A stretch of 27,809 nt of DNA from Candidatus Hadarchaeota archaeon (GCA_964552335.1 CAZKGC010000001.1:1-27809); one strand, 5' to 3'. Positions 487 to 20,249 are shown, numbered from the stretch's first letter. Notes: generated by a model from the sequence alone, not told the origin. Made by a program: numbers and translations.

Positions 487-3400
487 CTACCCTCCTGAAG
501 ATACGATCCTGAATGTCCAAATCGAGGATGCGTTCTCGTTGCCGGCTACATCCTTGTCCGTGACTTTCCAGTAATAGTTTTCAGCGGGCAGCTCGGTCGT
601 CGGGGTATAAGTGTTTTCCATCAGCCAGATGTCGATGTCCGGGGAGCCGAACGCTATGTCGCTGTCCACGATCAGATGGTAGTTATCTGCGCCTGGGCTG
701 AGCGACCACTCAAACGTCGGGGTGTTGTCACCCGTCTCCGTCCCGTTCTCCGGGGCGTATAGCACTGGCGCCTCCGGAGGAACCGTGTCGACGGTGAGCG
801 TCCGGATATCGGAGGAGTTCTCGTCCGGGCCCACGACCGCCGCTACCTTCCAATAGTAATCGCCGTCAAGAAGAGCGTTCTCCTCTTCTATGGTGTACGA
901 AGTGACAGATGGGGCGAGGAATACATCTAATGTCGGAGATGACAGGTCCGGGTTAGTGCCGAGCAGCAGGCGATAGTTGTCCCCGTTGCCCCCTGCCCAC
1001 CTCAGAGTCGGCGTGTTGTCGTTCGTGAAAACCCCGTTTTCCGGAGAGCTCAGCGCGGGCGCCTGAGGAGGTGCTCTGATGGTTAGTGCGAATGTGTTCG
1101 ACCACTCACCAGCGTTTCCAGCCACATCTTTAGCTCTCACGTGCCAGTAGTACGTACCGTTCCTTTCAAATATGCGCGCGTATGAATTGTCAGTGCGGCT
1201 CGTGTCCACATCCACGTATGGGGTGGCAAAACTGTTCTCGTTATCGATCTGGATGTCGTATGTCGCTCCCTGCTCAGGTTCAGTCCACTGGAATGTTGCA
1301 TCCAGCGTCGAGAGCACGGTGCCGTCCTGCGGCCCAGAGAGCAGGGGCTGGGTTGGAGCCTGCGTGTCCACCGTGAACGTGGATGGGTTGGACCAGCCGA
1401 GCAGATTGTTCATGCTGTCGTATGCCGCGACACGCCAGTAGTATTCGCCGTCTTGTAGTGTCACGGTCGCGGTGTACGTCGTGCTGGTTATGTTGTCTTC
1501 ATGGATCAATGGTGAGGAGAAGCTTGAGTCGTCGTCCACCAACAATTCGTACCTGCTGGCACCGATCGTGTCCCAACTGAGGTCCGGGGTGTTGTCGTTC
1601 GTGAAACCCCCGTTTTCTGGAGAAATCAGATACGGCGCATGGTTGATCTCTATTATCTTCACCGTACTGTTTGAACTCGTGAAAGCCACTTGCAGATAAT
1701 TGATGTCTTGGATGTTACCTCCGAAAATACGCACGCCAATCGGGACGGCACGCCCAGCCATCTCAGCCGACACGCCTTTGATAAGCCATGCTGTCCTAAA
1801 GTTGCCGCTCCCATCAAGGATAATGAGCAACGTTTCTTGGATATCCGAGCCATAGTATGGCGAGTTGAACCCATCGTATTCTGATATTTTGCCCGTGTCG
1901 TCCACCCTCAAGACAGCGTAACCGTCCATGAACAAGTTTCCATTATCGGTCCGGAGATAGACAATCATATTCTGCGTGTCCAGAACCACGGCTGCCCTGT
2001 TTTCGCCAAAATTGAACACGTAGTTTACGCCCTCCGAGCTCGGCTGTAGCGAAGAAGGTGTCTTAATTCTTTCCGCATTCAACAGGATGTTTACTGGCTG
2101 CTGCGTGGAATAGTAGTCGTATGCTTGATAAAATTCATCGAGCGAAAATATCACGTAATCTATTCTGACGCCGTAGTTATCTCGGTATGTTTGGACGATC
2201 CACCTGAACTCGTTTTCACCCACTATAGGTAACCACTGGACATCGATTCGTCTCCCATTAATTTGGAACGATTTCCGGGATACATCTACACCATAAATAA
2301 GTGCACTGCTGTCCTCAACGTAATAGATGTAGTCTGGGGGGCGTGGGACAAAAGACGGATTATTTTCCCATGTCCCTTCTTCTGCCCTGATCTCAGCACC
2401 ATCGCACACGGTCGTCCGCCGTGCAGCGCCCGTGAGGAGGTGCCCGAACGACCACTGGATGGAGACCACTGAATTCTCCGACGTATTCTCTTGGAGCCAA
2501 GCGAATGCTTCCATGAATCCTTTATCCAATCCACTGACACCATGCCATTCCGTGGGTGGGCCAGTTTGGTAAGCGTTGGTGTATGCATTGGAAATAAACG
2601 GCGCGGCGACGATACCTGCCACAAGCAAAAGTGCGATGGGGTTCTGGAGGTGCTTCAGATGTTCCCCATAGGGTTCTAAAGAGAGTCGCTTGACAAGGGA
2701 CACCAACGTTGCTGCGCCGACGCCAGCTAGTGCCGGTAAAAATGACCACCACAGTCGCTCGAATCGCGCCTGCCCCTTCCCCGGCAACACCATCGCTACT
2801 AGGACGACCAGCCATGCAAAAGTTAAAATTTCCCATCGCTTCCTAGACCAACAGAACTTGAGGAATGCTAAGATAACCAGAGCGAGGATAAACGCCGTCA
2901 GAATAACAGCTGGAAAATTAGAGCCGTAAAATTTACCTAAGGTTTCACCCCAAGATGTTGGCGATTGCATCTCACTAGCATAACTGCTGAATGAAACTCC
3001 CGCACCTCCTCCTCCAATCCCAAGATATCCTGCGTAAGTCCCAAAGATGCTAACCCAGATTTCCGGGCCTTGCCCACCTAAGGCCCACAGCACGAGGGTT
3101 ATCACCACTACCATTCCAACCGTACCGGCTAGCACATCAATATGCCCGCGGATGGCCGAGAAAAATGCGCCAAGCAAGTCTGATGTTTTGCGTGAAAACT
3201 TCCCCAAGAATCCCACTAACAAAACGAATAATAACCCCAATACCAAGATGGCGATAATATAGTGCCAGCCGCCCCACGCCAGCCCGAAGAGCCCGTACAC
3301 CATCCCGGCCAAGAGCGCGAACTTTGGAATCGAGTTCCTAGAAGCCTTGAAAAGTTTTATAGTGAGATACATCGCCCATGCCCCGAGTATCAACTGAATA

Positions 3401-3873
3401 GGCTCCCTGTCGAACGCTCCAACCTTGTTCCAATAAATCGTCGACACCATGGTGGCGGCAAAGAACGCGGCGGCTACCCCCCCCACGTCGCCTCCAAGCT
3501 CCCTACCAATCAGAAAAATCGGGATGAGCGAGAGGGCAAAAATAAATGGGGCCCAGTACTTGACAACATCCATCAGGGTAACGCTTGGGTTTAAGGCGCT
3601 GACCCCACGATAAATCATCACGGCCAGGAGAGGTTGGACCTGCTCACCGAGTGATATGCCCAAACCGTATGGCGCGTGAGAAAGTGGGTTGTTTTCCGCC
3701 AGAGCATTTTCTCTATTTATCTCAAAAGCGGTATCGTATACCCAGCCACTATCGGAGGTGGTCAAAGTGTCGTACTTCTGCCCGGGGATCAACAGCACCG
3801 ATGTCGTAAACGCCATCAACGCAAGCATGTAGCCGACAATCAGCCATCGGCGATAGTTCAAATGGTCACCCAA
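487..3873 (-). CDS. aglB: STT3/AglB-family oligosaccharyltransferase-like membrane protein with four C-terminal Ig/FN3-like repeats
   Basis: Multi-TM N-terminal half with STT3-type motifs: LTTSDSGW (first catalytic Asp), GAFDRE (DxE), YASEMQ (TIxE/SVSE-like), GQARF, AFAWLQENT..SVV, and QWSFGH..AARRTTVCDG at the WWDYG position. The start could be TTG 3873 or TTG 3861. Confidence 0.85.
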   Translation of the reverse strand: MGDHLNYRRWLIVGYMLALMAFTTSVLLIPGQKYDTLTTSDSGWVYDTAFEINRENALAENNPLSHAPYGLGISLGEQVQPLLAVMIYRGVSALNPSVTLMDVVKYWAPFIFALSLIPIFLIGRELGGDVGGVAAAFFAATMVSTIYWNKVGAFDREPIQLILGAWAMYLTIKLFKASRNSIPKFALLAGMVYGLFGLAWGGWHYIIAILVLGLLFVLLVGFLGKFSRKTSDLLGAFFSAIRGHIDVLAGTVGMVVVITLVLWALGGQGPEIWVSIFGTYAGYLGIGGGGAGVSFSSYASEMQSPTSWGETLGKFYGSNFPAVILTAFILALVILAFLKFCWSRKRWEILTFAWLVVLVAMVLPGKGQARFERLWWSFLPALAGVGAATLVSLVKRLSLEPYGEHLKHLQNPIALLLVAGIVAAPFISNAYTNAYQTGPPTEWHGVSGLDKGFMEAFAWLQENTSENSVVSIQWSFGHLLTGAARRTTVCDGAEIRAEEGTWENNPSFVPRPPDYIYYVEDSSALIYGVDVSRKSFQINGRRIDVQWLPIVGENEFRWIVQTYRDNYGVRIDYVIFSLDEFYQAYDYYSTQQPVNILLNAERIKTPSSLQPSSEGVNYVFNFGENRAAVVLDTQNMIVYLRTDNGNLFMDGYAVLRVDDTGKISEYDGFNSPYYGSDIQETLLIILDGSGNFRTAWLIKGVSAEMAGRAVPIGVRIFGGNIQDINYLQVAFTSSNSTVKIIEINHAPYLISPENGGFTNDNTPDLSWDTIGASRYELLVDDDSSFSSPLIHEDNITSTTYTATVTLQDGEYYWRVAAYDSMNNLLGWSNPSTFTVDTQAPTQPLLSGPQDGTVLSTLDATFQWTEPEQGATYDIQIDNENSFATPYVDVDTSRTDNSYARIFERNGTYYWHVRAKDVAGNAGEWSNTFALTIRAPPQAPALSSPENGVFTNDNTPTLRWAGGNGDNYRLLLGTNPDLSSPTLDVFLAPSVTSYTIEEENALLDGDYYWKVAAVVGPDENSSDIRTLTVDTVPPEAPVLYAPENGTETGDNTPTFEWSLSPGADNYHLIVDSDIAFGSPDIDIWLMENTYTPTTELPAENYYWKVTDKDVAGNENASSIWTFRIVSSGG
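490..1638 (-). repeat. Four tandem ~96-aa Ig/FN3-like repeats (P.L.SP.NG....DNTP.x.W ... Y.W.V.A.D..GN...S....T..T)
   Basis: Repeat starts near 1638, 1359, 1074 and 783. Repeats 1 and 3 share 33/35 identical nt (1589-1623 vs 1013-1047), 576 nt apart. Confidence 0.85.
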
Positions 3874-3922
3874 TAGGTTTAAACCACTCTCTCTTAAAAG
3901 CCTCTAACTTGAGCTGGCGGAC

Positions 3923-4183
3923 TTATTTTTCGGGTGCGCTCTGTTCGCTTTCTTTCTCTTCCAACTTGGCTGGCGGAGGTGAAGGTGAAACTTCTCTTGT
4001 GGTGGCCATGATCCATCCGAGCCAGAAGCCCAGCCCGCAGACGACGAGCAACCCGACCGTGACGGGCAGGGCGAACGACATATCAATCACAGGCCCACTG
4101 AAATAACCATAGTAGATGTGAAGAACTATTACAACAACGGTAGCAATACACAGCAGCGCGCCCAATATTCTCGATGCACCCAA
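3923..4183 (-). CDS. Small two-TM archaeal membrane protein (W.GW.MATT..P..PP type)
   Basis: Two hydrophobic helices followed by GWIMATTREVSPSPPP and an acidic tail. TTG 4183 follows an AGGTGA RBS and a TTTAAATA box at ~4220-4227. The track start (4393) overlaps the kinase gene and is probably too long. Confidence 0.7.
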   Translation of the reverse strand: MGASRILGALLCIATVVVIVLHIYYGYFSGPVIDMSFALPVTVGLLVVCGLGFWLGWIMATTREVSPSPPPAKLEEKESEQSAPEK

Positions 4184-4271
4184 CGTATCACCTACTTCAA
4201 TCACCCTCCTCCCAAGCATATTTAAACATTTCGCGCTTTGTGGGAAGTTTGAGATACGTTCGCCTAGAAAT

Positions 4272-4787
4272 TCAGGTGGGAGGTTTTGGCCTGATTTTTC
4301 CGAGCGCGAACTGAACGAACTTGTTGATGTCTTCCAAAACATCTGGAGGGAAGGGGCCTCTCCCAAGGCCGTACTCATCCAGATAGAAGACATGCCCCCC
4401 CTTCATCCCGAAGTTCGAGGGTTTTATGTCCAGCACATATCCCTGCTTACTTGCTCTCCCAATCAAGGCGAAAATTTCTCTCAAGGCTCCAATCGAATAG
4501 GCTGGGAGGGGCCCAACGTATTCGTGAAAAGTGACAACCGCTGGACAGACGACTCCATCGCGCCTGATGCCAGTCACCGCTGTGCCGTAATATTCTGGTA
4601 GAAAATCCAACTTTTTCCTTATCTCCCGCTGGTGAGAATCAACCTCAACCGCCCGCTTCTGCAGCTCTTCGAGTGACCTACCCCTGCCCAGCTCCACCTT
4701 GAGCGCGATTTTTCCCGCTTTGAATACATACCTGTACAATCCCCTGCCGACCAGCTTTGGTCTCCCCTTCACACAAGTTACCTGCAT
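4272..4787 (-). CDS. Minimal protein-kinase-like (PKL fold) protein, ~171 aa
   Basis: G-loop LVGRGLYRYVF, IALKV lysine, candidate alphaC Glu (AVEVD), catalytic loop LDIKPSNF and DFG-like YLDEYG. ATG 4787 lies 16 nt after the rad50 stop. Confidence 0.75.
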   Translation of the reverse strand: MQVTCVKGRPKLVGRGLYRYVFKAGKIALKVELGRGRSLEELQKRAVEVDSHQREIRKKLDFLPEYYGTAVTGIRRDGVVCPAVVTFHEYVGPLPAYSIGALREIFALIGRASKQGYVLDIKPSNFGMKGGHVFYLDEYGLGRGPFPPDVLEDINKFVQFALGKIRPKPPT

Positions 4788-4803
4788 TCGATCCCAACAA
4801 TCA

Positions 4804-7206
4804 TCACTCGAACAATTCGGGCACCGCGACCTGCTCAACTTTTGTCGGCTCGTCGGAATCCTTGTCGCGGGAAAACCTGTACAAGTAGCCGCTGACGGCG
4901 CTCTCCAGGCGCTCCTCGTGGGTTATTAATAAGATCTGCCGCACAACCTCGGGGAGACGGTCTCTCAATATTTTCGCCAGTTCTTGGATACCTTCTGCGT
5001 CCAAGTTGTGGGTTGGCTCATCGAAGACTATCCACCTCAGGTTGGGTGCGAGGACAATTGAGAAAGCGATACGGAGCGCGAGGCAGGCGTCGGTCCGCTC
5101 GCCGCCGCTCGCTATTCCCTCGACCGGGACCCATTCGCCAGCACGGTCGCGAAGCTTCAACACGTAGTCGCCACCGCGTTCTCCTCCCTCAACTGCCAGC
5201 TGAACTCCAATGAAATCTCCATAGGGGTAGATGCTTTCCCACAAGTCATTCATGACCTCGTTGACCCCATCGATGAACATCCGGCGCATAGAGATCTGAG
5301 TTCGCGTGAGCGCAGTATGGATGGCGGTCAGCGCCTGAGCAGCATCCCGCAGGTGCGTGACCTCCGCTTCGCAGCGCAAAATCAGCGCGAGCTTCTCCCG
5401 TATGCTCTCCACGAATTTTTTCTTTTCGGCAAACAGCTGCTCCTTACCCGACAGTTCCGCGCGAAGGCGTTCCTGCGTGCCGACGAGCTCCTCCAATCGT
5501 TCACGAAATTCCTCCGCCTCTGTCTCGTCATAAGTGCGCCTCAGTTGTTCCACAGTCTGCTTGATCCGATCGCTTTCCACAAGTTTCTGCCTGTACTCGA
5601 TACCCCGCCTATCTACGTCCATTCGCAGTTGAAGAAGTTGTTTTGAGTTTGACAATTTATCGTAAAGTTCATCAACTTCCTTTCGGGCACACTCGTTTTC
5701 CGACCTTAACTTTTCGCTCTCGTCTCGCGCTTTCGGAATTTCCAGCTCCACTTCCCCTAGCCGTTTGGAGAGATCCGAGCGCTCCTCTTCAAGCTTAGGG
5801 ATGTCTCCAACCTCCTTCGCCAGCAGTATGCACTTCCGCTGCAACTCAAGCTTCTGGCGCAGGTCATCGCTGAGCCCCTTCAAGCGTAACTCAAGTTCAT
5901 TTGCACGCTTGTTGAAATCTTCGAGTTGTCCCTGGCGCTGGTGTAGAAGCTCCTGTTTTCTGGGCTCATCGAGGGGGCTCTCGCAGACGGGACACGTAGC
6001 CCCCGCCCCCGAGAGTTCGTCCATCGACCCCTTTAAGTCCTGAATCTTGGCGCGGGAAGCGGCAAGCTCGTCACCTACTTCGCGGAACTCTGTTTGAGAT
6101 CTTTCAATCACTTCCGCCAGTTTCTCCGGTTCCAATCCCTCCAGCTCCTCGCCAAGTTTTCGCTTTCGGGAAAGTTCGGCGGTTATCTTGTCCAGCTCAT
6201 CCCGAAGCATCTTTTTTTGAGTTTCCAACCCTTGCAGTCTCGAGAGGGTGATGGTAAGGCTTGAATTGAGTTGATTTGCCAAGGAAACCTTCTCGCTGTA
6301 AGCTCGATCCAACTCACTCGCCTGCTTTTGGATTTCCTCGACTCCGACGTCCGCGGCGGCTCCCAGCCTTTCCCTGAATTCATCGAGCTGTTGTTTCAGC
6401 GCCCCTATCGCACCACTGAGCTCACGATATGATTGCTCCAGCTGCACGAGTTTCTGCTCAATTTCGCGGAACTGTTGGACTTGGTTGCGGGTTGACTCGA
6501 GCTCTGGCTGTAGTTGCTGGAGTCTCACCGAAATCTCCTGTTTAGACGATTCAAGATCCCTCAACTCCTGCTCATGAATCGGCAGCATGGCGATTGACGA
6601 GTCTTGCTTAAGTTGATTCGCCGTTGCCTCGCGCTCCTGCGCACGATCCTTCACGCGACCCGACAACGCGACGATGCTCTTGCGCGCCTTTTCAAGCTTG
6701 TTTATGCCGAGAAGCTCGTCGATGCTTTCCATCCTTCTCCCTTTTGGGAGCATCAGAAAGTAATCGAGGCGGTTTTGTTCCGAATAAATAGCCCGCTCGA
6801 ACAAATCATAGTCAAGCTCCAGCAACGATTGGACGAGTTCGTTCACATGTCCGGAACTTGGGCTTTCAATAAGTTCCCCGGTTGCTTTTCTCAATTCGGA
6901 TAAAGACGTCCCGCTTCCCCGCTCAACGACTCGTTTGACGATATACTCGTTTCCATCGGGTGCCACGAAATTAACCTCCACCTCTGCCCGATCAAGAGGT
7001 CTAGGCCTGCTAGTGATCAAATCCTCTAACCTGATGCGGCGGGATTGCACCGCGGGCAGAGTTCCGAACAGCGCGTAAGTGATGGCATCCAGCACAGCGG
7101 ACTTGCCCGCTCCCATCATTCCTACCAGAACATTTGTGCCGTCGCCGAAGCGGAGCTCCGTGTCGCGGTGGGACTTCCAATTTTTCAGTTTAACGCGCGT
7201 TATCAC
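4804..7206 (-). CDS. rad50: DNA double-strand-break repair ATPase Rad50
   Basis: Walker A GMMGAGKS, Q-loop YSEQ, long coiled coil, central zinc hook CPVC, signature ASGGE, Walker B VFDEPT, H-loop LITH. Overlaps the mre11 stop. Confidence 0.95.
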   Translation of the reverse strand: MITRVKLKNWKSHRDTELRFGDGTNVLVGMMGAGKSAVLDAITYALFGTLPAVQSRRIRLEDLITSRPRPLDRAEVEVNFVAPDGNEYIVKRVVERGSGTSLSELRKATGELIESPSSGHVNELVQSLLELDYDLFERAIYSEQNRLDYFLMLPKGRRMESIDELLGINKLEKARKSIVALSGRVKDRAQEREATANQLKQDSSIAMLPIHEQELRDLESSKQEISVRLQQLQPELESTRNQVQQFREIEQKLVQLEQSYRELSGAIGALKQQLDEFRERLGAAADVGVEEIQKQASELDRAYSEKVSLANQLNSSLTITLSRLQGLETQKKMLRDELDKITAELSRKRKLGEELEGLEPEKLAEVIERSQTEFREVGDELAASRAKIQDLKGSMDELSGAGATCPVCESPLDEPRKQELLHQRQGQLEDFNKRANELELRLKGLSDDLRQKLELQRKCILLAKEVGDIPKLEEERSDLSKRLGEVELEIPKARDESEKLRSENECARKEVDELYDKLSNSKQLLQLRMDVDRRGIEYRQKLVESDRIKQTVEQLRRTYDETEAEEFRERLEELVGTQERLRAELSGKEQLFAEKKKFVESIREKLALILRCEAEVTHLRDAAQALTAIHTALTRTQISMRRMFIDGVNEVMNDLWESIYPYGDFIGVQLAVEGGERGGDYVLKLRDRAGEWVPVEGIASGGERTDACLALRIAFSIVLAPNLRWIVFDEPTHNLDAEGIQELAKILRDRLPEVVRQILLITHEERLESAVSGYLYRFSRDKDSDEPTKVEQVAVPELFE

Positions 7207-8491
7207 TTGTTTTCCCCCTTAGTTCAGCTTTCACAAGGTTTTCTACCACCCCAAAAACATTCTGCAGCGCCTCCTCCTCGCGTCCCTCGACCAGCAGGCC
7301 GTAGAGCGCTCGGACATCGAATATCTGGGTGTAGCCGGACTCGCGCAGGTTGCTCTCCAGCAGGGCCATGGCTGTCTCATCTATGGACATCCGCCGCTCC
7401 TTTAGTTCTCGCAAAAGCTGCAATTTCTCTTCCAAACCAGGAGCAACTAAATCTCCTTTGCTCACAACAACTAACGCCATGTCCGCGAACTCTTGGGTGA
7501 TCGCTCGCTCGTCGAACTCGCTGCGCGATGCTTCCTTGGCCAATGTCCCAACCAGCCTCACCCTTATGAGAGGAAGCTTCCCGAGATTTTTCCTCGGTCT
7601 CTTCAAAAGCTCTCTCACCTTGACCCTCACCGCCTCGTTTAGCCGAGGGACGCTCACCCCTTCGAACCTCATCTCCTCGTAGTAGAAATCCCGCGTAGAC
7701 TTGAGTTCGATGAATTCATACCTGAGCCCGTTGCCGAACTCGACCATGTAGAAACCTTTGGGAGTCTCTGCCTCAATTTGAAGCAGTTGCGTGCGCTCAG
7801 TGCCCCCAGGAAAGAGAATCGGTTTACCGTGAACAGTGGACTCGGTGCGGTAGTGGATGTGGCCGCACAAGTAGAGATCAAACCCGCTGGGCAGGTCGGA
7901 AATGTCCAGAGTGGGTAGCTCCTCGCTCGAGTAAATGAACTGCCCGACAGACTGATGCAGGGCCAAGATGTTGAACGCACCATGAACTGGCTTTGGGTTC
8001 CAAGTCGCGAACACATTCCTAGCGTGCTGCTCGGGCACATTGCTCATTCCGTGAATCGCGAGCTTGCCCTGAGGCGTGTCGAAAATCAACGTGTTGTGAT
8101 GCATGTGGATGAGTAGTCCGGCTGCCTCGAGCGCCTCGACCGGGTTAGTCAGTCCACGCGTGCGGCGCTCGTGGTTTCCGTGGAGGGCAACCACCGGAGT
8201 CCCTAGGAACGCCACGGGTGAAATTTCCTCAAAGTTTTTGTCGATCGTGTCGATGAGTCTGACTTCATTCCGCCCCCGTGCGAGTGGTGTCGAGAGGACG
8301 CGCAGCGCCCGAGCCCACACCTCCTGCCGCGGTATACGTGTGTCGAAGATGTCGCCAAGCAGTACGATGAGCTGTGCTCCGAGGTCGAGGGATTTTTCGA
8401 TTGCCTCCTGAAACTGAACAAAAGAGTCCTGCTCCCGCGGTGTTCCCCACTTTGCTCCAAGGTGCGGGTCGGCGATTACAGCTATCTTCAA
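7190..8491 (-). CDS. mre11: Mre11/SbcD-family nuclease
   Basis: Phosphoesterase motifs ADPHLG, LGDIFD, HGNHE, LHQ and GHIH. Directly upstream of rad50. Confidence 0.93.
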   Translation of the reverse strand: MKIAVIADPHLGAKWGTPREQDSFVQFQEAIEKSLDLGAQLIVLLGDIFDTRIPRQEVWARALRVLSTPLARGRNEVRLIDTIDKNFEEISPVAFLGTPVVALHGNHERRTRGLTNPVEALEAAGLLIHMHHNTLIFDTPQGKLAIHGMSNVPEQHARNVFATWNPKPVHGAFNILALHQSVGQFIYSSEELPTLDISDLPSGFDLYLCGHIHYRTESTVHGKPILFPGGTERTQLLQIEAETPKGFYMVEFGNGLRYEFIELKSTRDFYYEEMRFEGVSVPRLNEAVRVKVRELLKRPRKNLGKLPLIRVRLVGTLAKEASRSEFDERAITQEFADMALVVVSKGDLVAPGLEEKLQLLRELKERRMSIDETAMALLESNLRESGYTQIFDVRALYGLLVEGREEEALQNVFGVVENLVKAELRGKTSDNAR

Positions 8492-8577
8492 GGGACCACT
8501 CAGTTTCTTTTGGAGGTTCGTGCTTAAGTGGATTTTTGCAAGCTGAACGCGTTGTTGCTCAAACTTAAATCAAACTT

Positions 8578-8596
8578 CACCGAAATCGATTCGGTG
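8578..8596. promoter_or_regulatory. Inverted repeat CACCGAA-N5-TTCGGTG in the mre11/rfcL divergent promoter
   Basis: Perfect 7-bp arms between a CTTAAAT TATA-like box (~8564-8570) and the rfcL ATG. Confidence 0.4.
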
Positions 8597-8601
8597 CTCG
8601 A

Positions 8602-9825
8602 ATGTCAGAACCCTGGGTCGAGAAGTATCAGCCCCACAAACTTCGTGAAATCGTCGGACAATCAAAAGCCATTCAGGATATTACGACCTGGGCAGAGAGT
8701 TGGAAAAAAGGCAAACCCATCAAGCCGGCAATTCTGCTTTACGGACCAGCTGGAACGGGAAAGAGCGTGGCCGCTGCTGCTCTCGCACGTGAGTTTGGCT
8801 GGGATCTGGTAGAGATGAACGCCAGCGACGAACGCACTATGTCTGAAATCAAGCGCGTGGCCGGGGCCGCGGCGACTGCGGGAACCTTGCTCACCGGAGC
8901 TGGTGGTCGAAGGCTGATAGTGCTCGATGAAGCGGACAACATCCACGGAACCTCTGACCGGGGAGGATACCGCGCCCTCGGGGAGTTGCTTGAAGAGACC
9001 CAGAACCCGCTCGTGCTGATAGCCAACGACCAGTACGCTATACCCTGGGAAATCCGCGCGGCGTGTGAACTGGTCAACTTCAGGCGTTTGATGGAGGAGG
9101 TGACCTTCAAGGAACTGCAGCGGATATGCCGGGCGGAGGGAATCACAGCCGAACCTCTGGCCCTCAAGGTTATTGCCGAGACCGCGAAGGGAGACCTGCG
9201 CTCGGCCATCAATGACCTTCAGACATTCGCGATGGGTAAAAAAAACCTAGCCGTCAAAGATCTGGCCCTCTACCGCCGCGACCGAGAGGTTAATGTATTC
9301 GACTTCCTGAAGCAGCTCCTCTCGGTTGATAATGCCATGGATGCAAGAATCCTGCTCTGGGCACTCGACCTTCCCCCCGACGAAGCGCTTGGATGGATAG
9401 ATGAGAATATCCCGCGAATGGTCGCAGACCCGGCAGATTTAGTTAAAGTGTACGACGCTATTTCGAGGGCAGACATATTTTTGGGCCGCGCGAGGAGAGG
9501 ACAGGCCTATGGGCTCTGGGGGTACGCGAGCGACCTGATGAGTGCCGGGGTGGCCCTATCGAGGGGCAAGCACCTCAAGTGGTCGAAGTTCCAGCCCCCG
9601 AGCCACATACGACGTTTTGCCCGTACGCGAGTTTCCAGAGCGGTGCGGGATGCTGTTGCTCGCAAGGTCGCCCAGCGCTGCCACACTTCTGCTAGAATTG
9701 CGCGGAAGGATGTTCTTCCTTATCTGGGTGTGATCTTCAAACATGACAAAAACGCTGCAGCTGCGATAGCAGGCGAACTCGAACTCACTGATGCCGAATC
9801 AAGTTTTCTGAAAGCGCTGGGGTGA
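8602..9825 (+). CDS. rfcL: Replication factor C large subunit
   Basis: PWVEKYQP box II, Walker A GPAGTGKS, EMNASD, Walker B LDEADNI, GDLRSAINDLQ, and a typical RFC-L C-terminal region. Confidence 0.93.
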   Translation: MSEPWVEKYQPHKLREIVGQSKAIQDITTWAESWKKGKPIKPAILLYGPAGTGKSVAAAALAREFGWDLVEMNASDERTMSEIKRVAGAAATAGTLLTGAGGRRLIVLDEADNIHGTSDRGGYRALGELLEETQNPLVLIANDQYAIPWEIRAACELVNFRRLMEEVTFKELQRICRAEGITAEPLALKVIAETAKGDLRSAINDLQTFAMGKKNLAVKDLALYRRDREVNVFDFLKQLLSVDNAMDARILLWALDLPPDEALGWIDENIPRMVADPADLVKVYDAISRADIFLGRARRGQAYGLWGYASDLMSAGVALSRGKHLKWSKFQPPSHIRRFARTRVSRAVRDAVARKVAQRCHTSARIARKDVLPYLGVIFKHDKNAAAAIAGELELTDAESSFLKALG

Positions 9826-10955
9826 ACTTGAAGATAGTCGAGAAACTTCAGCTGGGGAGGCTCGCTACCCCGCTCCCCGACAGGAGGCGCCCCATCTACA
9901 ACTGGTTCCCCGTGAAGGAGGCGTTCTCGCGGGATCTAATCCGCCTGCTCACAGAAACTTGGGGACTTCACGAGGGAGACTTGTTGCTTGATCCATTCTG
10001 CGGAGTCGGCACGACACCGCTCTCGTGCAAGGAACTCGGTCTTGACTGCGTTGGGTTTGATGTGCACCCGATGATGTTGTTGGCATCTCACGTGAAGCTC
10101 AGGAACTATGCCGCCGAAGAACTCAAGAGGGCAATCGAGAGTTTGATGGGGCCAAAGTTTGAGAAGATAGAAGTTGATGTGCCGGGTTTTGTGGCGCGCG
10201 TCTTCCCGAGGTCCATTCTCGGGGAAATCTTTTCCTTCAGAAAGAAAATCGCGGAGGTGGCGGACGAGGGGGTTCGTGAGTTCATGCTGCTGGGTCTGGC
10301 CATCGCTGCGATGAAGTGCAGCTGGGCGTACAAGGACGGGGCGGCGATAAAGGTAGTCAAGCACTCTGTGCCGCCGCTACGAAAGACTCTCGGACAACAG
10401 CTCTTACTAATGTGTCACGATCTTGGGCGATTCATAGCAAAACCAGCTAAAATTAAGGTTGAGCACCGCGATGCCAGAGAACTGAAACTTGAAGACGAGA
10501 TCGTTGATGCAGTGATAACTTCTCCGCCGTACCTGAGGAAACAGGAGTACATCCACACATACCGGATCGAACAGTGGATTCTTGAATCGGAAGCGCCGCG
10601 TGCGGACGAGCTCATCGGAGTTCGCGCTGGGGATGCCGGTGCGGAAGATTTTTCAAAAATTGCGGAGTTTGTTGAAGGCAGACCGCTTGAGGCAAAACTT
10701 TACTTCAAGGACATGTTCATGGTGCTCCAAGAGCTTTATCGGGTCTGCAGGCATGGGGCGAAAATTTGTTTGGTGACGTCAGATGGGTGTTCTCCAGAAG
10801 GTGTTGTTGAAGTCTGTGAAACGCTTAGCAGGCTCGCCGAACGTGCCGGGTTCAGGGCCAAGCGTATGATCGTGGTGAACAAGCGTTTCTGCACGACTCC
10901 CGCCAGAAAGAAAATTGGAGTAGCGCGTGAATCTCTGCTGATGTGGGAGCGGTGA
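9822..10955 (+). CDS. Site-specific DNA amino-methyltransferase, probably N4-cytosine, alpha-type motif order
   Basis: SAM-binding LLDPFCGVGTT near the N-terminus and catalytic VITSPPY in the C-terminal half. The GTG start overlaps the rfcL TGA (GTGA). Confidence 0.8.
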   Translation: MNLKIVEKLQLGRLATPLPDRRRPIYNWFPVKEAFSRDLIRLLTETWGLHEGDLLLDPFCGVGTTPLSCKELGLDCVGFDVHPMMLLASHVKLRNYAAEELKRAIESLMGPKFEKIEVDVPGFVARVFPRSILGEIFSFRKKIAEVADEGVREFMLLGLAIAAMKCSWAYKDGAAIKVVKHSVPPLRKTLGQQLLLMCHDLGRFIAKPAKIKVEHRDARELKLEDEIVDAVITSPPYLRKQEYIHTYRIEQWILESEAPRADELIGVRAGDAGAEDFSKIAEFVEGRPLEAKLYFKDMFMVLQELYRVCRHGAKICLVTSDGCSPEGVVEVCETLSRLAERAGFRAKRMIVVNKRFCTTPARKKIGVARESLLMWER

Positions 10956-16918: not shown

Positions 16919-18502
16919 TTATAATTGGGCAACATCCTCGACCCAGGCGAACTTCCGCTGGAGAGTCGTGGGATAGATATTCTTCCAATCGTACCCGAGT
17001 TCCTTCGCCCACTTCGCGTAGATGCGGGGGTCGATGTAGGACTTGAGCGATGTCCCGAGGTTGTAGTCGCGTGTGGCCTTTGCGAGCTTCACCTTGATTT
17101 CGGCCGCCTCTATCCTCTTCAGCAGGGACTCTATTCTCTTAGCGCGCATCTTGGATGGGGACTTTTTTCTAACCTCTCTCAGTTGCGCCTTCAGGGCCTT
17201 CAGCCTTTCCTCCTTCTTCCTCAGGGATTCTTCCCAGTTCTTCGGCAGCTTTCGCTTGTGGTTGCAGGTGACCGCCGCCTCAAGGTTCGCCATGGTCGCC
17301 GTGTACTTTTTCTTGAACTCTGGGTCCTCTGGCCGGAGTTCATCTTTCGCCAAGTAGTCCCTCACCACTTTTGACGCGTGGTACGTCCTGAAGACCTTCG
17401 CCGTGAGCCAAGGCATCACCTTCCCCAAAAAAGCATTGACCATCTCAGAGCGCACCCCGGAGAAAACTGGTTCTCTAGGTTTCCCGATAAATGACTTCAG
17501 GTTATTCACGACCTGCGGCGGAGGCTTAATGGTTTTGACCCATCTCACCGAGTCCTTGCCCAAAAAATCGAACTTCACGTTTCCCGACTCGTCTATCCCG
17601 ATGTGCGAGCCCCTGAGGGTGACAGCACCAACCGTGTCGGCCTCGTCCTTGTCCTTCTCGTCTCCAACCCTCAGCTTCAGGGCGTCTATCAGGTACGCGA
17701 CCGTTGCCACTTTCCGCTTGGTGATGTCGTCTGAAGTTAGGTTCATCTCTATGTGGCGCCTTACTTTTTCGACAAGCTGCTCAAGCTCCAAGGCCTCTTT
17801 GAACTTTATGATCTCACGCTCCTGCTTGAAGCGCGCGCTGTCGGCTATCCATACATACTTCATCTTCCCCGTGAGCTTGTCCCGCCATTTTGCAACCCAG
17901 AGGGCTCTTGGGTCGAACTCTCTGCCACCCCACTCGTTTCCATCTGGTGCCTTGGGGGTCGGAGCGTCAGGTGACAGGTTGAGGATGATGTCCCTGTAGC
18001 TGACCCTCGGCTTCCACCTCCCCCTGAGCGGGTGCTCGCCGCGCCCCATGAAGATGCAGGGAGGCTCGACCGTGTAGTTGCCTATCTCCACGCGCTCGCC
18101 GTTGAGGATTACGTATCCGTACTTCTCCCTGTTTGCCTCCCTGAGTTTCTTCCTAGCCTCGGCCAGCCTCTTCTTCTCCTCGCGCGACATGCCTTCCTTT
18201 TTGACCTTTTCCTCCCCGACCCAGCGCTGAATCTCCGAGAAATCGAAGTCCTCTATCTTAGAGGAGGGGTCGACTCCAAGCGCCTTCGAGAAGTCACCCA
18301 CGAAATTTTTTATGAAGACTGGATCCTTCACGTAGTCCGTCCCAAGCTTCTTTACCCAAGCCAAAGCCATCTCTTCTTGTTCTGGCGTCAGAGAGAGCTT
18401 CGTTCCCCTGTATTTTATTGCAAAACCTTGTGGTTCGCAGGATGGGATGAGGACCCCGTTGTGGGCAAGCTGCGTTATCTTTGGTGGTTCCGACATGGGC
18501 AT
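16919..18502 (-). CDS. DNA topoisomerase IB, large eukaryote-like type
   Basis: FMGRGEHPLRG, KYVW, LKLRVGDEK, FDFLGKDSV, AKVFRTY, CNHKR, a coiled-coil linker and LGTSLKSYIDPR. All five catalytic residues (R, K, R, H, Y) are present. Start is 18502 or 18496. Confidence 0.95.
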   Translation of the reverse strand: MPMSEPPKITQLAHNGVLIPSCEPQGFAIKYRGTKLSLTPEQEEMALAWVKKLGTDYVKDPVFIKNFVGDFSKALGVDPSSKIEDFDFSEIQRWVGEEKVKKEGMSREEKKRLAEARKKLREANREKYGYVILNGERVEIGNYTVEPPCIFMGRGEHPLRGRWKPRVSYRDIILNLSPDAPTPKAPDGNEWGGREFDPRALWVAKWRDKLTGKMKYVWIADSARFKQEREIIKFKEALELEQLVEKVRRHIEMNLTSDDITKRKVATVAYLIDALKLRVGDEKDKDEADTVGAVTLRGSHIGIDESGNVKFDFLGKDSVRWVKTIKPPPQVVNNLKSFIGKPREPVFSGVRSEMVNAFLGKVMPWLTAKVFRTYHASKVVRDYLAKDELRPEDPEFKKKYTATMANLEAAVTCNHKRKLPKNWEESLRKKEERLKALKAQLREVRKKSPSKMRAKRIESLLKRIEAAEIKVKLAKATRDYNLGTSLKSYIDPRIYAKWAKELGYDWKNIYPTTLQRKFAWVEDVAQL

Positions 18503-18599
18503 CGTTCTAAATCATTTGTTTCCGTTAAAATACCTAGACTATCCCAGTTTGAGATCCGCGTGATTTCTATTTAGGACACTACATCAAGCAATTTTCTTT

Positions 18600-18615
18600 C
18601 GAAAAACTTTATTAC
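18600..18615 (+). promoter_or_regulatory. BRE/TATA-like promoter (CGAAAAAC-TTTATTA) with no protein gene downstream
   Basis: Purine-rich BRE followed by TTTATTA at 18608-18614, about 25 nt before the structured segment starting at ~18640. Confidence 0.55.
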
Positions 18616-18638
18616 ATGAAGGCGACACAACCACTAAT

Positions 18639-18850
18639 TGCGAGGAGAAAGCCGGCAAATAAGGCTGAACCTTGTCCAAGGACAAGGGTGATTCATGGAA
18701 AAACTCAGCGCAGCTGGGGAAGGCCGTGAATAAGGCGCGTGGAGGTATGCGCTAAAGCTGAGTTGCTGGAAAAAGACCTCATGACGAAAAGCGCGGTAGG
18801 GAAACCGAACCGCCGCGGAGTAGTCGCGTGGTCGAATCCTCGCACCTTTT
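18639..18850 (+). ncRNA. Candidate structured non-coding RNA (~205 nt), family unrecognised
   Basis: The ends pair perfectly (TGCGAGGA 18639-46 / TCCTCGCA 18837-44), with at least six internal helices, A-rich linkers, a GAAA tetraloop, an upstream promoter and a downstream TTTT. Folded by eye. Confidence 0.65.
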
Positions 18851-18873
18851 ACATGGAAAAATTTGAACTAAAA

Positions 18874-20211
18874 TTAGAGCGCATGCAGCAGCCTTTGGAC
18901 TTCCCAATCCGTGACCTGAGACTTGTACTCGTTCCACTCCTGACCCTTGATATACAGGAAGTGATCGAATAGATGCTCCCCAAGTGCCTCTCGAACCAAC
19001 TTGCTTTGACGCATGTAGTCAAGCGCCTGGCCGAGGTTCTCCGGGAGGGATCCTATGCCAAATGTCTCTCGCTCCTCCGCGCTCATGCGGTAGATGTCCT
19101 TCTCCACAGGCTCCGGAGGCTCGATCTTTTCCTCAATTCCCTTCAGCCCCGCCGCGAGCATCACCGTGAACTGTAAATATGGGTTCCCAGCGGGGTCTGG
19201 GTTCCGGAGCTCGACCCGCGTCCGCACTTCCCTCCCCGCCGGCACTCTGATGAAGGCGCTTCGGTTGCGGTTCGCCCAAGAAATGTAGACTGGTGCTTCA
19301 TACCCTGGCACTAACCTCTTGTAGGAATTGACCGAGGACGCCAGCACCGCGCAGATATCCTTGGCGTACTTCATCAAACCCCCGATGTAGTAGAGCGCGT
19401 CCTTGCTGAGCTTATAAGATCCCTTCGGGTCGTAGAAAACGCTCTTGCCCTGAGGGGTTATCAGCGACTGGTGGACATGCATCCCGGAGCCGTTGATGCC
19501 GAAGATGGGTTTGGGCATGAATGTCGCGTAGAGCCCGTGCTTGTAGGCTATGGTCTTCGTGACGTACTTCATCATCGCCACGCGGTCGGCCGAAATCATC
19601 GCATCCGCATATTTCAGGTCGATCTCGTGCTGCCCGGGAGCGACCTCGTGGTGTGAAGCCTCGACTTCAAAACCCATCGCGCTTAGATAAGTCACGATTT
19701 CTTTTCGGAGATTGTCCCCTCGGTCGCGCATCAGGTCAAAGTACCCCCCAAAGTCGGAGGGCTTGGTCGTGGGGCTGCCATTCTCGTCCAGCGTCAGGAG
19801 GAAGAATTCGTACTCCGGGGCTGTGTTGAAGATCCAGCCCTTCTTCCGGGCCAGCCCCATGATATTTTCGAGCGCTGCTCTTGGGTCTCCCTCAAACCGA
19901 CTGCCCTCGTGGTCATAAACATCGCACACTATCCGCGCGGTCTTCAGATCGTCTTGAGACCAGGGAACCGCGACAAACGTGCTCGGATCCGGCTTAAGGC
20001 GCATGTCAGACTCCTCGATCGTGGCGTAACCCAGCACCGAGGAGCCATCAAAGAAAATTCCCTCATCAAAAGCCTTCTCGAGTCTCGCGGCCGGAATCGT
20101 AACGTTCTTGACCGTGCCAAGGATGTCCATAAACTGCATCTGAATGAACTTGATTCCCTCTTTCTTCACCGCCTGCATTATCTCCTGCTCGGAAACCACT
20201 TCGACCCCCAC
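18874..20211 (-). CDS. glnA: Glutamine synthetase type I (GSI-alpha-like)
   Basis: FDGSS, PEYEFF, HHEVAPGQHEI, TFMPKP, NGSGMHVHQS, NSYKRLVPGYEAP, NRSAFIRVP, RVELRNPD. The track ATG at 20232 overlaps the TATA box, so GTG 20211 or 20199 is more likely. Confidence 0.96.
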   Translation of the reverse strand: MGVEVVSEQEIMQAVKKEGIKFIQMQFMDILGTVKNVTIPAARLEKAFDEGIFFDGSSVLGYATIEESDMRLKPDPSTFVAVPWSQDDLKTARIVCDVYDHEGSRFEGDPRAALENIMGLARKKGWIFNTAPEYEFFLLTLDENGSPTTKPSDFGGYFDLMRDRGDNLRKEIVTYLSAMGFEVEASHHEVAPGQHEIDLKYADAMISADRVAMMKYVTKTIAYKHGLYATFMPKPIFGINGSGMHVHQSLITPQGKSVFYDPKGSYKLSKDALYYIGGLMKYAKDICAVLASSVNSYKRLVPGYEAPVYISWANRNRSAFIRVPAGREVRTRVELRNPDPAGNPYLQFTVMLAAGLKGIEEKIEPPEPVEKDIYRMSAEERETFGIGSLPENLGQALDYMRQSKLVREALGEHLFDHFLYIKGQEWNEYKSQVTDWEVQRLLHAL

Positions 20212-20249
20212 CCATCTCCTCGCGCGTAACATTTATACTTGGCGCTAAT

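Follow-up and report, generated by a model that had tools for sequence, protein, structure and literature searches.

A predicted RNA gene between topoisomerase IB and glnA

In a 27,809-nucleotide stretch of DNA from a Candidatus Hadarchaeota archaeon (GCA_964552335.1 CAZKGC010000001.1:1-27809, called the window in the following), the question arises what is encoded in an intergenic gap of 371 nt (18503-18873) that is bounded by two minus-strand genes. These encode a eukaryotic-type topoisomerase IB (topoIB; 16919-18502, with the domains Topoisom_I, Topoisom_I_N and Topo_C_assoc) and a type I glutamine synthetase (glnA; 18874-20232 according to the gene annotation). An earlier note made from the sequence alone, referred to here as the original prediction, had named both flanking genes, which domains and coordinates confirm, and had placed between them a novel multibranch non-coding RNA (ncRNA) of ~205 nt with its own promoter. 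The analysis presented here supports this proposal, with a length of ~212 nt and with the wiring of some helices corrected. From fold stability, covariance model (CM) match and conservation limits, a transcript of ~212-215 nt is predicted for the plus strand of 18636-18850. In our judgement, the gap very likely contains a genuine gene for a structured ncRNA. The statement as a whole, i.e. an independent ncRNA gene of ~212 nt that represents a new family and would act in trans through its tertiary structure, is given a probability of about 0.6.

The minimum free energy (MFE) of the plus strand of 18636-18850 is -92.7 kcal/mol, compared to -64.6 +/- 4.4 kcal/mol for dinucleotide shuffles (z = -6.36). 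None of 200 shuffles equalled the native value. The reverse strand of the same segment reaches a z-score of only -2.93. For a distant homologue (L084; homologous loci are given L numbers throughout) a z-score of -6.57 was obtained, and its own MFE structure gives the consensus fold. The covariance model R1 matches the window at 18635-18847 with 243.9 bits.

Homologues were searched for in the neighbourhoods of close glnA homologues and subsequently by a core-pattern scan of JGI metagenomes. Copies of the RNA are present near the glnA relatives in L081, L082, L083, L084/L085, L086 and L108, and the invariant core AGGGNNACCGANCCGCNGCGGAGTA led to 11 more contigs, all of which contain a full-length copy according to nhmmer. 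Altogether 17 distinct sequences including that of the window (16 other homologues) are available from Hadarchaeota metagenome-assembled genomes (MAGs) and metagenome contigs. Five of the homologues come from NCBI MAGs, assigned, where labelled, to Hadesarchaea or Candidatus Hadarchaeota. An alignment of 15 full-length sequences (A3), with pairwise identities of 69-99.5% and a mean of 83%, underlies the comparisons below. Sequence conservation starts at CTAATTGCG, 2-4 bases before the closing helix P1, and ends directly after the 3' strand of P1.

The consensus fold calculated from A3 with RNAalifold comprises nine helices with 62 pairs altogether; 96.9% of all pair cells are indeed paired. 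Compensatory double changes are found at 19 pairs (37 cells). When the 3' partners are slid by 1-3 columns, pairing falls to 37-40% and the number of double-change pairs to 2-4, and none of 500 shuffles attains any of five covariation measures. Compensation among relatives, one of the checks named in the original prediction, is evident in the 15 aligned sequences.

In a hand tally of the per-pair table, G.U pairs account for 110 of the 930 pair cells (12%). Since each of these cells would turn into an A.C mismatch if the opposite strand were the RNA, the plus strand is the RNA strand, in agreement with the original prediction, which had noted that the G.U pairs are meaningful on this strand only. 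A conserved open reading frame (ORF) is not present in any of the 15 sequences: stops occur in every frame in some homologues, and indels of 1-3 nt occur inside the RNA. This agrees with the original prediction, which saw no convincing protein gene in the gap. One minus-strand frame has no stops over ~70 codons in 11 of the 15 copies, because the minus strand is pyrimidine-rich. This frame contains no start codons, is shifted by the 1-3-nt indels and has stops in the other copies. On these grounds a protein-coding reading was rejected. The same stop-free frame of the pyrimidine-rich strand causes ORF finders to stretch neighbouring genes over the RNA or to create spurious ORFs, as seen at L084:12342-14462, L100:397-1761 and window 18635-18847 (-).

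An archaeal promoter, CGAAAAACTTTATTA, is located on the plus strand at 18600-18614. It consists of a sequence resembling the B recognition element (BRE), CGAAAAA (18600-06), and the TATA box CTTTATTA (18607-14). A purine-rich BRE followed by a T/A-rich box is found at about -35 to -21 from the start of the aligned segment in 15 of 15 homologues, with CGAAAAACTTTATTA, GGAAAAATTTATACA and GCAAAAACTTTAAATAG as examples. The BRE/TATA element that had been seen to point into the gap is therefore kept at a fixed distance throughout. As the spacing between TATA box and start site is roughly fixed in archaea, transcription should begin at ~18636-18638, 1-3 nt before P1. Archaeal transcription terminates at oligo-T stretches, and the T-run at 18847-18850 (+) is the probable terminator, with the glnA stop codon 24 nt beyond it on the opposite strand. 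T-runs follow P1 within ~15 nt or less in most lineages. In the L081 group the T-run after P1 is weak or absent, with CTTGT only. A scan for bacterial-type promoters and terminators found nothing, its model not being relevant to archaeal DNA.

Architecture of the predicted RNA

The 5' strand of P1, TGCGAGGA (18639-18646), pairs with TCCTCGCA (18837-18844) at the 3' end; like all elements of the RNA described below, both lie on the plus strand. P1 has 8 bp, is 98.3% paired and contains two double-change pairs, with GC and AU exchanged in five and in two sequences, respectively. It is predicted to close a three-way junction with the purine linkers GGAAG, AAAAA and GAA. The first, J1/2, reads GAAAG in the window (18647-18651; consensus GGAAG), the second, J2/5, is AAAAA (18770-18774), and both are nearly invariant in A3. 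The third, J5/1 (GAA), forms the end of segment 18817-18836, where it follows the GGAGTA strand and the 3' strand of P5 described below.

In the 5' domain, P2 would be followed by an AAAUAA/GAGU internal loop and P2b, and these would open into a four-way junction from which the hairpins PA, PB and PC branch. P2 is formed by CCGGC (18652-18656) and GCTGG (18765-18769) and is 100% paired; its column pair 20/137 is AU in eight, GC in four and GU in three sequences. The conserved loop strand AAATAA and the 5' strand of P2b, GGCT, occupy 18657-18666. The loop strand faces GAGTT (18760-64), which stands between the 3' strands of P2b (AGCT) and P2 in segment 18756-18769. P2b itself (GGCT 18663-66 with AGCT 18756-59) is 98.3% paired, and its column pair 29/129 alternates between G-U and G-C.

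Hairpin PA (18670-18687; CCTTGTC-CAAG-GACAAGG) shows double changes at five of eight pairs and is 99.2% paired, with a loop that is variable in sequence and length. Hairpin PB (18693-18729) has a lower stem, TCATGG (18693-98) with CCGTGA (18724-29), an almost invariant 5x5 purine internal loop, AAAAA (18699-703) facing GAAGG (18719-23), and an upper stem, CTCAGC-GCA-GCTGGG (18704-18718), whose apical part is invariant. Two double-change pairs are found in each of the two stems. The junction linker ATAA, part of an invariant ATAAG, extends from 18730 to hairpin PC (GGCGCGTG-GAGG-TATGCGCT; 18734-18753), for which three double-change pairs and 93.3% pairing were counted. The PC loop is variable as well. 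In both PA and PC the stems thus covary and the loops vary freely.

The 3' arm is predicted to be built from P5, a loop-E-like AGUA/GAA internal loop, P6, a UA/GAA internal loop and a GNRA tetraloop. In P5, GACCTCATGAC (18775-18785) pairs imperfectly with GTCGCGTGGTC (18823-18833). The helix is 81.8% paired, with double changes at five of 11 pairs: column pair 151/198 is G-C in three sequences, A-U in two and otherwise A.C, and column pair 155/194 is C-G in six and U-A in two. The adjoining internal loop is formed by GAAAA (18786-18790) facing GGAGTA (18817-18822), and GGAGTA as well as AAAA(G) are invariant in A3. As the loop-E consensus is AGUA/GAA, of the bulged-G/S-turn type, this element may by analogy be a loop-E-like motif. 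P6 (GCGCGG 18791-96 with CCG(C)CGC 18810-16), the UA/GAA loop and the terminal hairpin GG-GAAA-CC make up 18791-18816. In L086, P6 carries the double change G163A + C185U. The tetraloop (18801-04) varies within the GNRA class only (GAAA, GGAA, GUAA, GAGA, GUGA), apart from a 5-nt variant in L108.

The supported helices are wholly nested and take up 124 of the 211 internal alignment columns. Of the 87 unpaired columns, 71 (82%) have a purine consensus, 48 (55%) are A and 41 are invariant; complementarity between unpaired segments is not conserved across the 15 sequences.

All eight complementary segment pairs listed in the original prediction exist in the sequence, at the positions given there. 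As helices, P1, the hairpins at 18670-87 and 18734-53 and the GNRA hairpin were retained, three others were replaced and one competes with the consensus. AGCC/GGCT has no informative variation and gives way to the covarying P2 and P2b; it is not favoured because it cannot coexist with P2, where column pair 20/137 covaries. TCATG/CATGA is paired in 68% of cells and is displaced by the lower stem of PB, and AACTCAGC/GCTGAGTT, paired in 72%, by CTCAGC 18704-09/GCTGGG 18713-18 of the upper stem. The PB stems that replace these two are 96-100% paired and contain double changes.

The eighth pair, CGCGG/TCGCG, belongs to an alternative 3' arm. For 18791-18833 (A3 columns 145-204) two mutually exclusive conserved folds can be drawn, the P5/P6 arm and tandem hairpins of the form GCGG..CCGC and CGCGG-AGUAR-YCGCG. 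CGCGG/TCGCG stood up as a conserved pairing (96% of cells), but it lacks any double change, because CGCGG is almost invariant, and it excludes P6 and the inner part of P5, both of which have double changes. The P5/P6 fold is favoured on this comparative basis. The two folds could also be alternative states of the arm, i.e. a conformational switch.

Comparison with known RNA families

Rfam 15 (4227 models) gave no match at gathering score anywhere in the window, and none on the RNA in the 16 homologue loci. At E<=10 over 18480-18900, only local matches at chance level to CRISPR-DR11 (E = 2.4) and sR30 (E = 7.6) were obtained, and the two most divergent copies, scanned down to the same limit, likewise returned chance matches only. 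The sR30 C/D-box match lies at 18487-18517 (-), scores 9.5 bits, overlaps the start of topoIB and was judged to be due to chance. The matches to CRISPR-DR11, sR30, astro_FSE, Atu_C4 and RNaseP-T were rejected, all being local and having E > 1.

The original prediction had been unable to relate the RNA to tRNA, signal recognition particle (SRP) RNA, RNase P RNA or common riboswitches, and the model searches bear this out. ARAGORN finds no tRNA in the window, and the Rfam tRNA model matches only unrelated sites in L081 and L083. Neither Archaea_SRP nor 5S_rRNA matches up to E = 10 in the window and the two divergent copies, and the glutamine riboswitch models RF01739 and RF01704 do not match the window up to the same limit. 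The best RNaseP-T match, 9.1 bits with E = 8, covers one hairpin of L084, with no such match in the window or L094.

Among the known RNAs that resemble it is the type T RNase P RNA (RF02357), which is likewise an archaeal stand-alone gene of ~200 nt with ends paired in P1, purine-rich joining regions and G+C-rich stems. In contrast to the nested Hadarchaeota RNA, however, it has a P4 pseudoknot, the GGAAAGUCC/AAGUCC elements, an ACAGAA J2/4 and a P15 module. Type T RNAs retain all universal P4, J2/4 and J15/2 positions (PMC3579882). Neither ACAGAA nor GGAAAGUCC/AAGUCC occurs in any of the 15 sequences; the P4 strand carrying the bulged U is thus absent. The sole AC.GAA match common to most copies is an ACCGAA beside the GNRA hairpin, and a P4-like pseudoknot has no basis in conserved complementarity between unpaired segments of these sequences. 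Identities as RNase P, SRP, 5S or tRNA were rejected.

Guide RNAs of the box C/D and H/ACA types were rejected as well. No internal loop in A3 has a GA adjoining the stem on the non-bulged strand, as a K-turn would require; the 3' flanks of the homologues have CC, CU or UU in place of an ACA box 3' of P1; and snoRNA families do not match the RNA up to E = 10 in the window and the two divergent copies.

Other likenesses concern only parts of the picture. The raiA motif RNA, OLE, ROOL and GOLLD share the covarying multi-helix fold, the purine-rich junctions, the stand-alone position and a function that cannot be deduced from context, but they are bacterial or phage RNAs represented in Rfam without a match here, whereas the present RNA is archaeal and restricted to a sub-lineage. 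The glutamine riboswitch (RF01739) is also associated with glutamine synthetase and has an E-loop type motif, but it is ~60 nt long and resides in 5' untranslated regions (UTRs) of cyanobacterial and marine genes, whereas the RNA described here has 212 nt and is convergent to the 3' end of glnA. With 5S rRNA and the Tetrahymena P4-P6 domain it has a set of motifs in common, namely a three-way junction, a 3' arm with an AGUA/GAA loop-E, a GNRA tetraloop and A-rich bulges of the AAUAAG type. The 5S_rRNA and intron models do not match, sizes and 5' domain differ, and the likeness is one of motifs only.

A description of this RNA was not found in the literature on Hadarchaeota/Hadesarchaea RNase P, ncRNAs, riboswitches or Rfam families. 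By the tests run, i.e. no Rfam match, no tRNA and no conserved ORF, it appears to be a new RNA family. This novelty covers the family in sequence and fold, not the kind of function.

Distribution and genomic context

The RNA family has so far been seen in one Hadarchaeota sub-lineage only. At 76-81% glnA identity (L087-89, L101-103) a copy is absent within 10 kb even with the CM filters off; the family is thus confined to the sub-lineage or relocated outside it. Among 80 loci with topoisomerase IB synteny and 3-kb flanks, none contains the RNA according to nhmmer, blastn and CM; its ancestral position, ~3.05 kb upstream, is just beyond these flanks. In viral contigs a 17-base core pattern has four matches, none of which the CM confirmed and which are therefore due to chance. 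Exact-protein look-ups of the window glnA and topoIB products gave no match; the window topoIB is 68-75% identical to its counterparts in Hadarchaeota (Hadesarchaea) MAGs.

Upstream of the RNA the neighbour varies: topoIB in the window, TruA in L081, L093, L096 and L098, MoeA in L082 and L084, a 228-aa protein in L086, L097 and L108, and a Glu_synthase-domain protein on the same strand in L094. In most loci the upstream gene is divergent to the RNA. The ancestral order appears to have been glnA - RNA - moeA - moaA - truA - topoIB; all genes that separated the RNA from topoIB have been lost in the window. The RNA of L098 is 97% identical to that of the window, but L098:7837-9789, compared to window 18503-18634, contains three extra genes (a 127-aa ORF, a 149-aa helix-turn-helix protein of the HVO_A0261_N/IclR-like kind, and TruA). 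The direct adjacency of topoIB and RNA in the window is thus the result of a recent deletion or rearrangement of ~2 kb.

Downstream of the RNA, glnA is convergent in every case. The distance is 26-27 nt for the window and L098, and larger for L094 (95 nt), L097 (~176 nt) and the L081 group (265-266 nt). Insertions between RNA and glnA consist of GH2 or RhaT + GH2 (L082, L084), a cation-efflux gene (L086, L108), AFOR (L083), a 321-aa ORF (L095) or TnpB (L090, L091). In all informative loci glnA lies within 26 nt to 3 kb in convergent orientation; of the 11 contigs found by the pattern scan, which was unbiased as to neighbouring genes, eight extend far enough to be informative, and glnA is present in all eight. 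The next gene on the plus strand is absent, with a convergent gene following, or is GH2 or a cation-efflux gene, so that there is no consistent set.

TATA-like boxes stand directly after the RNA at L084:14252-14298 (TATAAATTTAAAA) and L086:12302-12330 (TAAATTTAAAAA), which suggests that the GH2 and cation-efflux genes have promoters of their own. In L094 (region 1825-5212), the most divergent homologue, the RNA is located between a 539-aa Glu_synthase-domain gene, upstream on the same strand, and the convergent glnA, and is thereby flanked by both halves of the glutamine synthetase-glutamate synthase (GS-GOGAT) pathway.

L090:660-2301 and L091:481-2554 each contain a TnpB-type gene (433 aa, with a Cas12f1-like TNB domain) and a second ORF between RNA and glnA on the opposite strand. 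This looks like an insertion of the IS200/605 type and is not the source of the RNA. A TnpB omega-RNA was rejected as an identity, since TnpB adjoins the RNA in L090/L091 only and on the other strand. In L100:360-602, P1 has an A.C mismatch (5' GCGAGGA / 3' TCCCCGC), and the 3' flank of this locus (AATGGTTTTAACGTG) agrees with L082, not with its closest relative L091; recombination or a chimeric assembly could account for the anomaly.

Possible function and alternative explanations

To our knowledge, RNAs of ~200 nt with complex folds and many conserved non-helical nucleotides are rare, and hardly any have been described from archaeal phyla without cultured members. Such RNAs have repeatedly proved to be ribozymes, riboswitches or cores of ribonucleoproteins (RNPs), and GNRA tetraloops and A-rich bulges of the AAUAAG type are used for tertiary packing. 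In the Hadarchaeota RNA the conserved unpaired purines lack Watson-Crick partners, and a compact tertiary structure is therefore most likely. The purine-rich single strands would form non-canonical motifs (loop-E/S-turn, A-rich bulges and GNRA), and the two domains could be packed against each other by GNRA docking together with A-minor and S-turn contacts. The resulting compact RNA would act in trans by its shape, be it as subunit or scaffold of an RNP, as a binder of a ligand or as a catalyst; that it pairs as an antisense RNA or serves as the leader of an mRNA seems less likely. The RNA also persists while neighbouring genes are inserted, deleted or replaced. It comes with an alignment, a covariance model, a testable architecture and a possible link to glutamine synthetase.

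The persistent convergent linkage to glnA is a faint hint at nitrogen assimilation as the process served, and we consider it rather doubtful that the linkage reflects such a role. Similarly speculative is the idea of an RNA that forms the core of a new archaeal RNP, or of a ribozyme or sensor, reading or acting on GS-GOGAT, e.g. by binding a nitrogen-status metabolite or GlnA- or PII-type proteins. If true, this would be the first case in Archaea of such a regulatory RNA with a complex fold.

Several points speak against a trans-acting RNA with the architecture described. The functional statement derives from motif resemblance and composition, and the transcript is a prediction from sequence signals. 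With 17 related sequences from one narrow clade and a mean identity of 83% among the 15 aligned, several compensatory changes represent single evolutionary events, and the shuffle control therefore overstates their significance. The well-paired tandem-hairpin alternative of the 3' arm is moreover the MFE choice in L094. Since a clear T-run is missing after P1, transcripts of the L081 group possibly read through towards glnA. Finally, the linkage to glnA could be plain inherited synteny, and the 76-81%-identical glnA relatives have no copy nearby.

Among the alternatives, a sensor or attenuator acting in cis survives best, and we consider it unlikely. Its folding would decide between a stop at the T-run and read-through into a co-directional gene, or antisense transcription into glnA that lowers glnA expression. 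The convergent glnA directly downstream in five lineages (26-266 nt), and within 3 kb in all informative loci, would fit this, as would GH2 starting 46-47 nt downstream on the same strand in L082/L084, the cation-efflux gene at 30 nt in L086, the L081 group without a strong T-run and the two mutually exclusive 3'-arm folds, which are reminiscent of switches. However, the downstream genes are mutually unrelated, and independent insertions have split them from glnA with the RNA retained. In L108 the same cation-efflux gene as in L086 is 253 nt away, and in L084 the TATA-like TATAAATTTAAAA suggests a separate GH2 promoter. Furthermore, P1 closes the molecule and conservation stops abruptly after it; an expression platform is not conserved.

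A base-pairing trans-acting small RNA (sRNA) of nitrogen metabolism, with loops that stabilise or block glnA and nif mRNAs, is quite improbable. The precedent is sRNA154 of Methanosarcina (M. mazei), an intergenic archaeal sRNA that regulates glnA and is tied to nitrogen control (PMC5867862), and the persistent glnA linkage as well as the Glu_synthase-domain gene adjoining in L094 would be in line with it. sRNA154, however, acts by pairing of two functional loops with mRNAs and has no sequence relation to the Hadarchaeota RNA, in which the hairpin loops are variable and conservation outside the helices is found in purine runs of the junctions, the opposite of a seed region. With 124 of 211 internal columns locked in covarying helices, the architecture is also far more elaborate than that of known pairing sRNAs.

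A reduced or divergent universal RNA, i.e. an RNase P RNA beyond type T or an SRP- or 5S-like RNA, is very improbable. Its length of ~210 nt and closure by P1 resemble type T RNase P RNA, and the loop-E arm 3' of a three-way junction recalls 5S rRNA. GAGGAAGCC after P1 and GGAAAAAGACC presumably recall CR-I, GAGGAAAGUCC, and AUAAGG recalls J5/15, but we take the CR-I likeness to be superficial, because the RNase P motifs and a P4-like pseudoknot are absent. Against such an origin stand the failure of the RNaseP, SRP and 5S models to score beyond the single L084 hairpin, the universal positions missing here that type T keeps (PMC3579882), and the fully nested topology. That the segment is instead a conserved element of the DNA, encodes a short protein on one of its strands or folds only by chance can practically be dismissed, since the one open minus-strand frame owes its existence to pyrimidine richness, substitutions in the stems are compensatory with strand-specific G.U cells, and the promoter points into the plus strand.

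Other genes in the window

Beyond glnA, segment 20767-27780 encodes an archaeal type IV pilin (157 aa), a 958-aa CBM96/DUF7289 protein and T2SSF- and T2SSE/PilB3-like proteins. These genes probably serve a pilus or adhesion, perhaps with carbohydrate binding. At the other end of the window, 487-10955 contains genes for an STT3-type oligosaccharyltransferase with an Ig-like domain (1128 aa), Rad50 (800 aa), an Mre11-like phosphoesterase (433 aa), an RFC-like AAA+ protein and an N6/N4 DNA methylase. L108 has the Rad50-Mre11-RFC-methylase block as well, and L086 has part of it.

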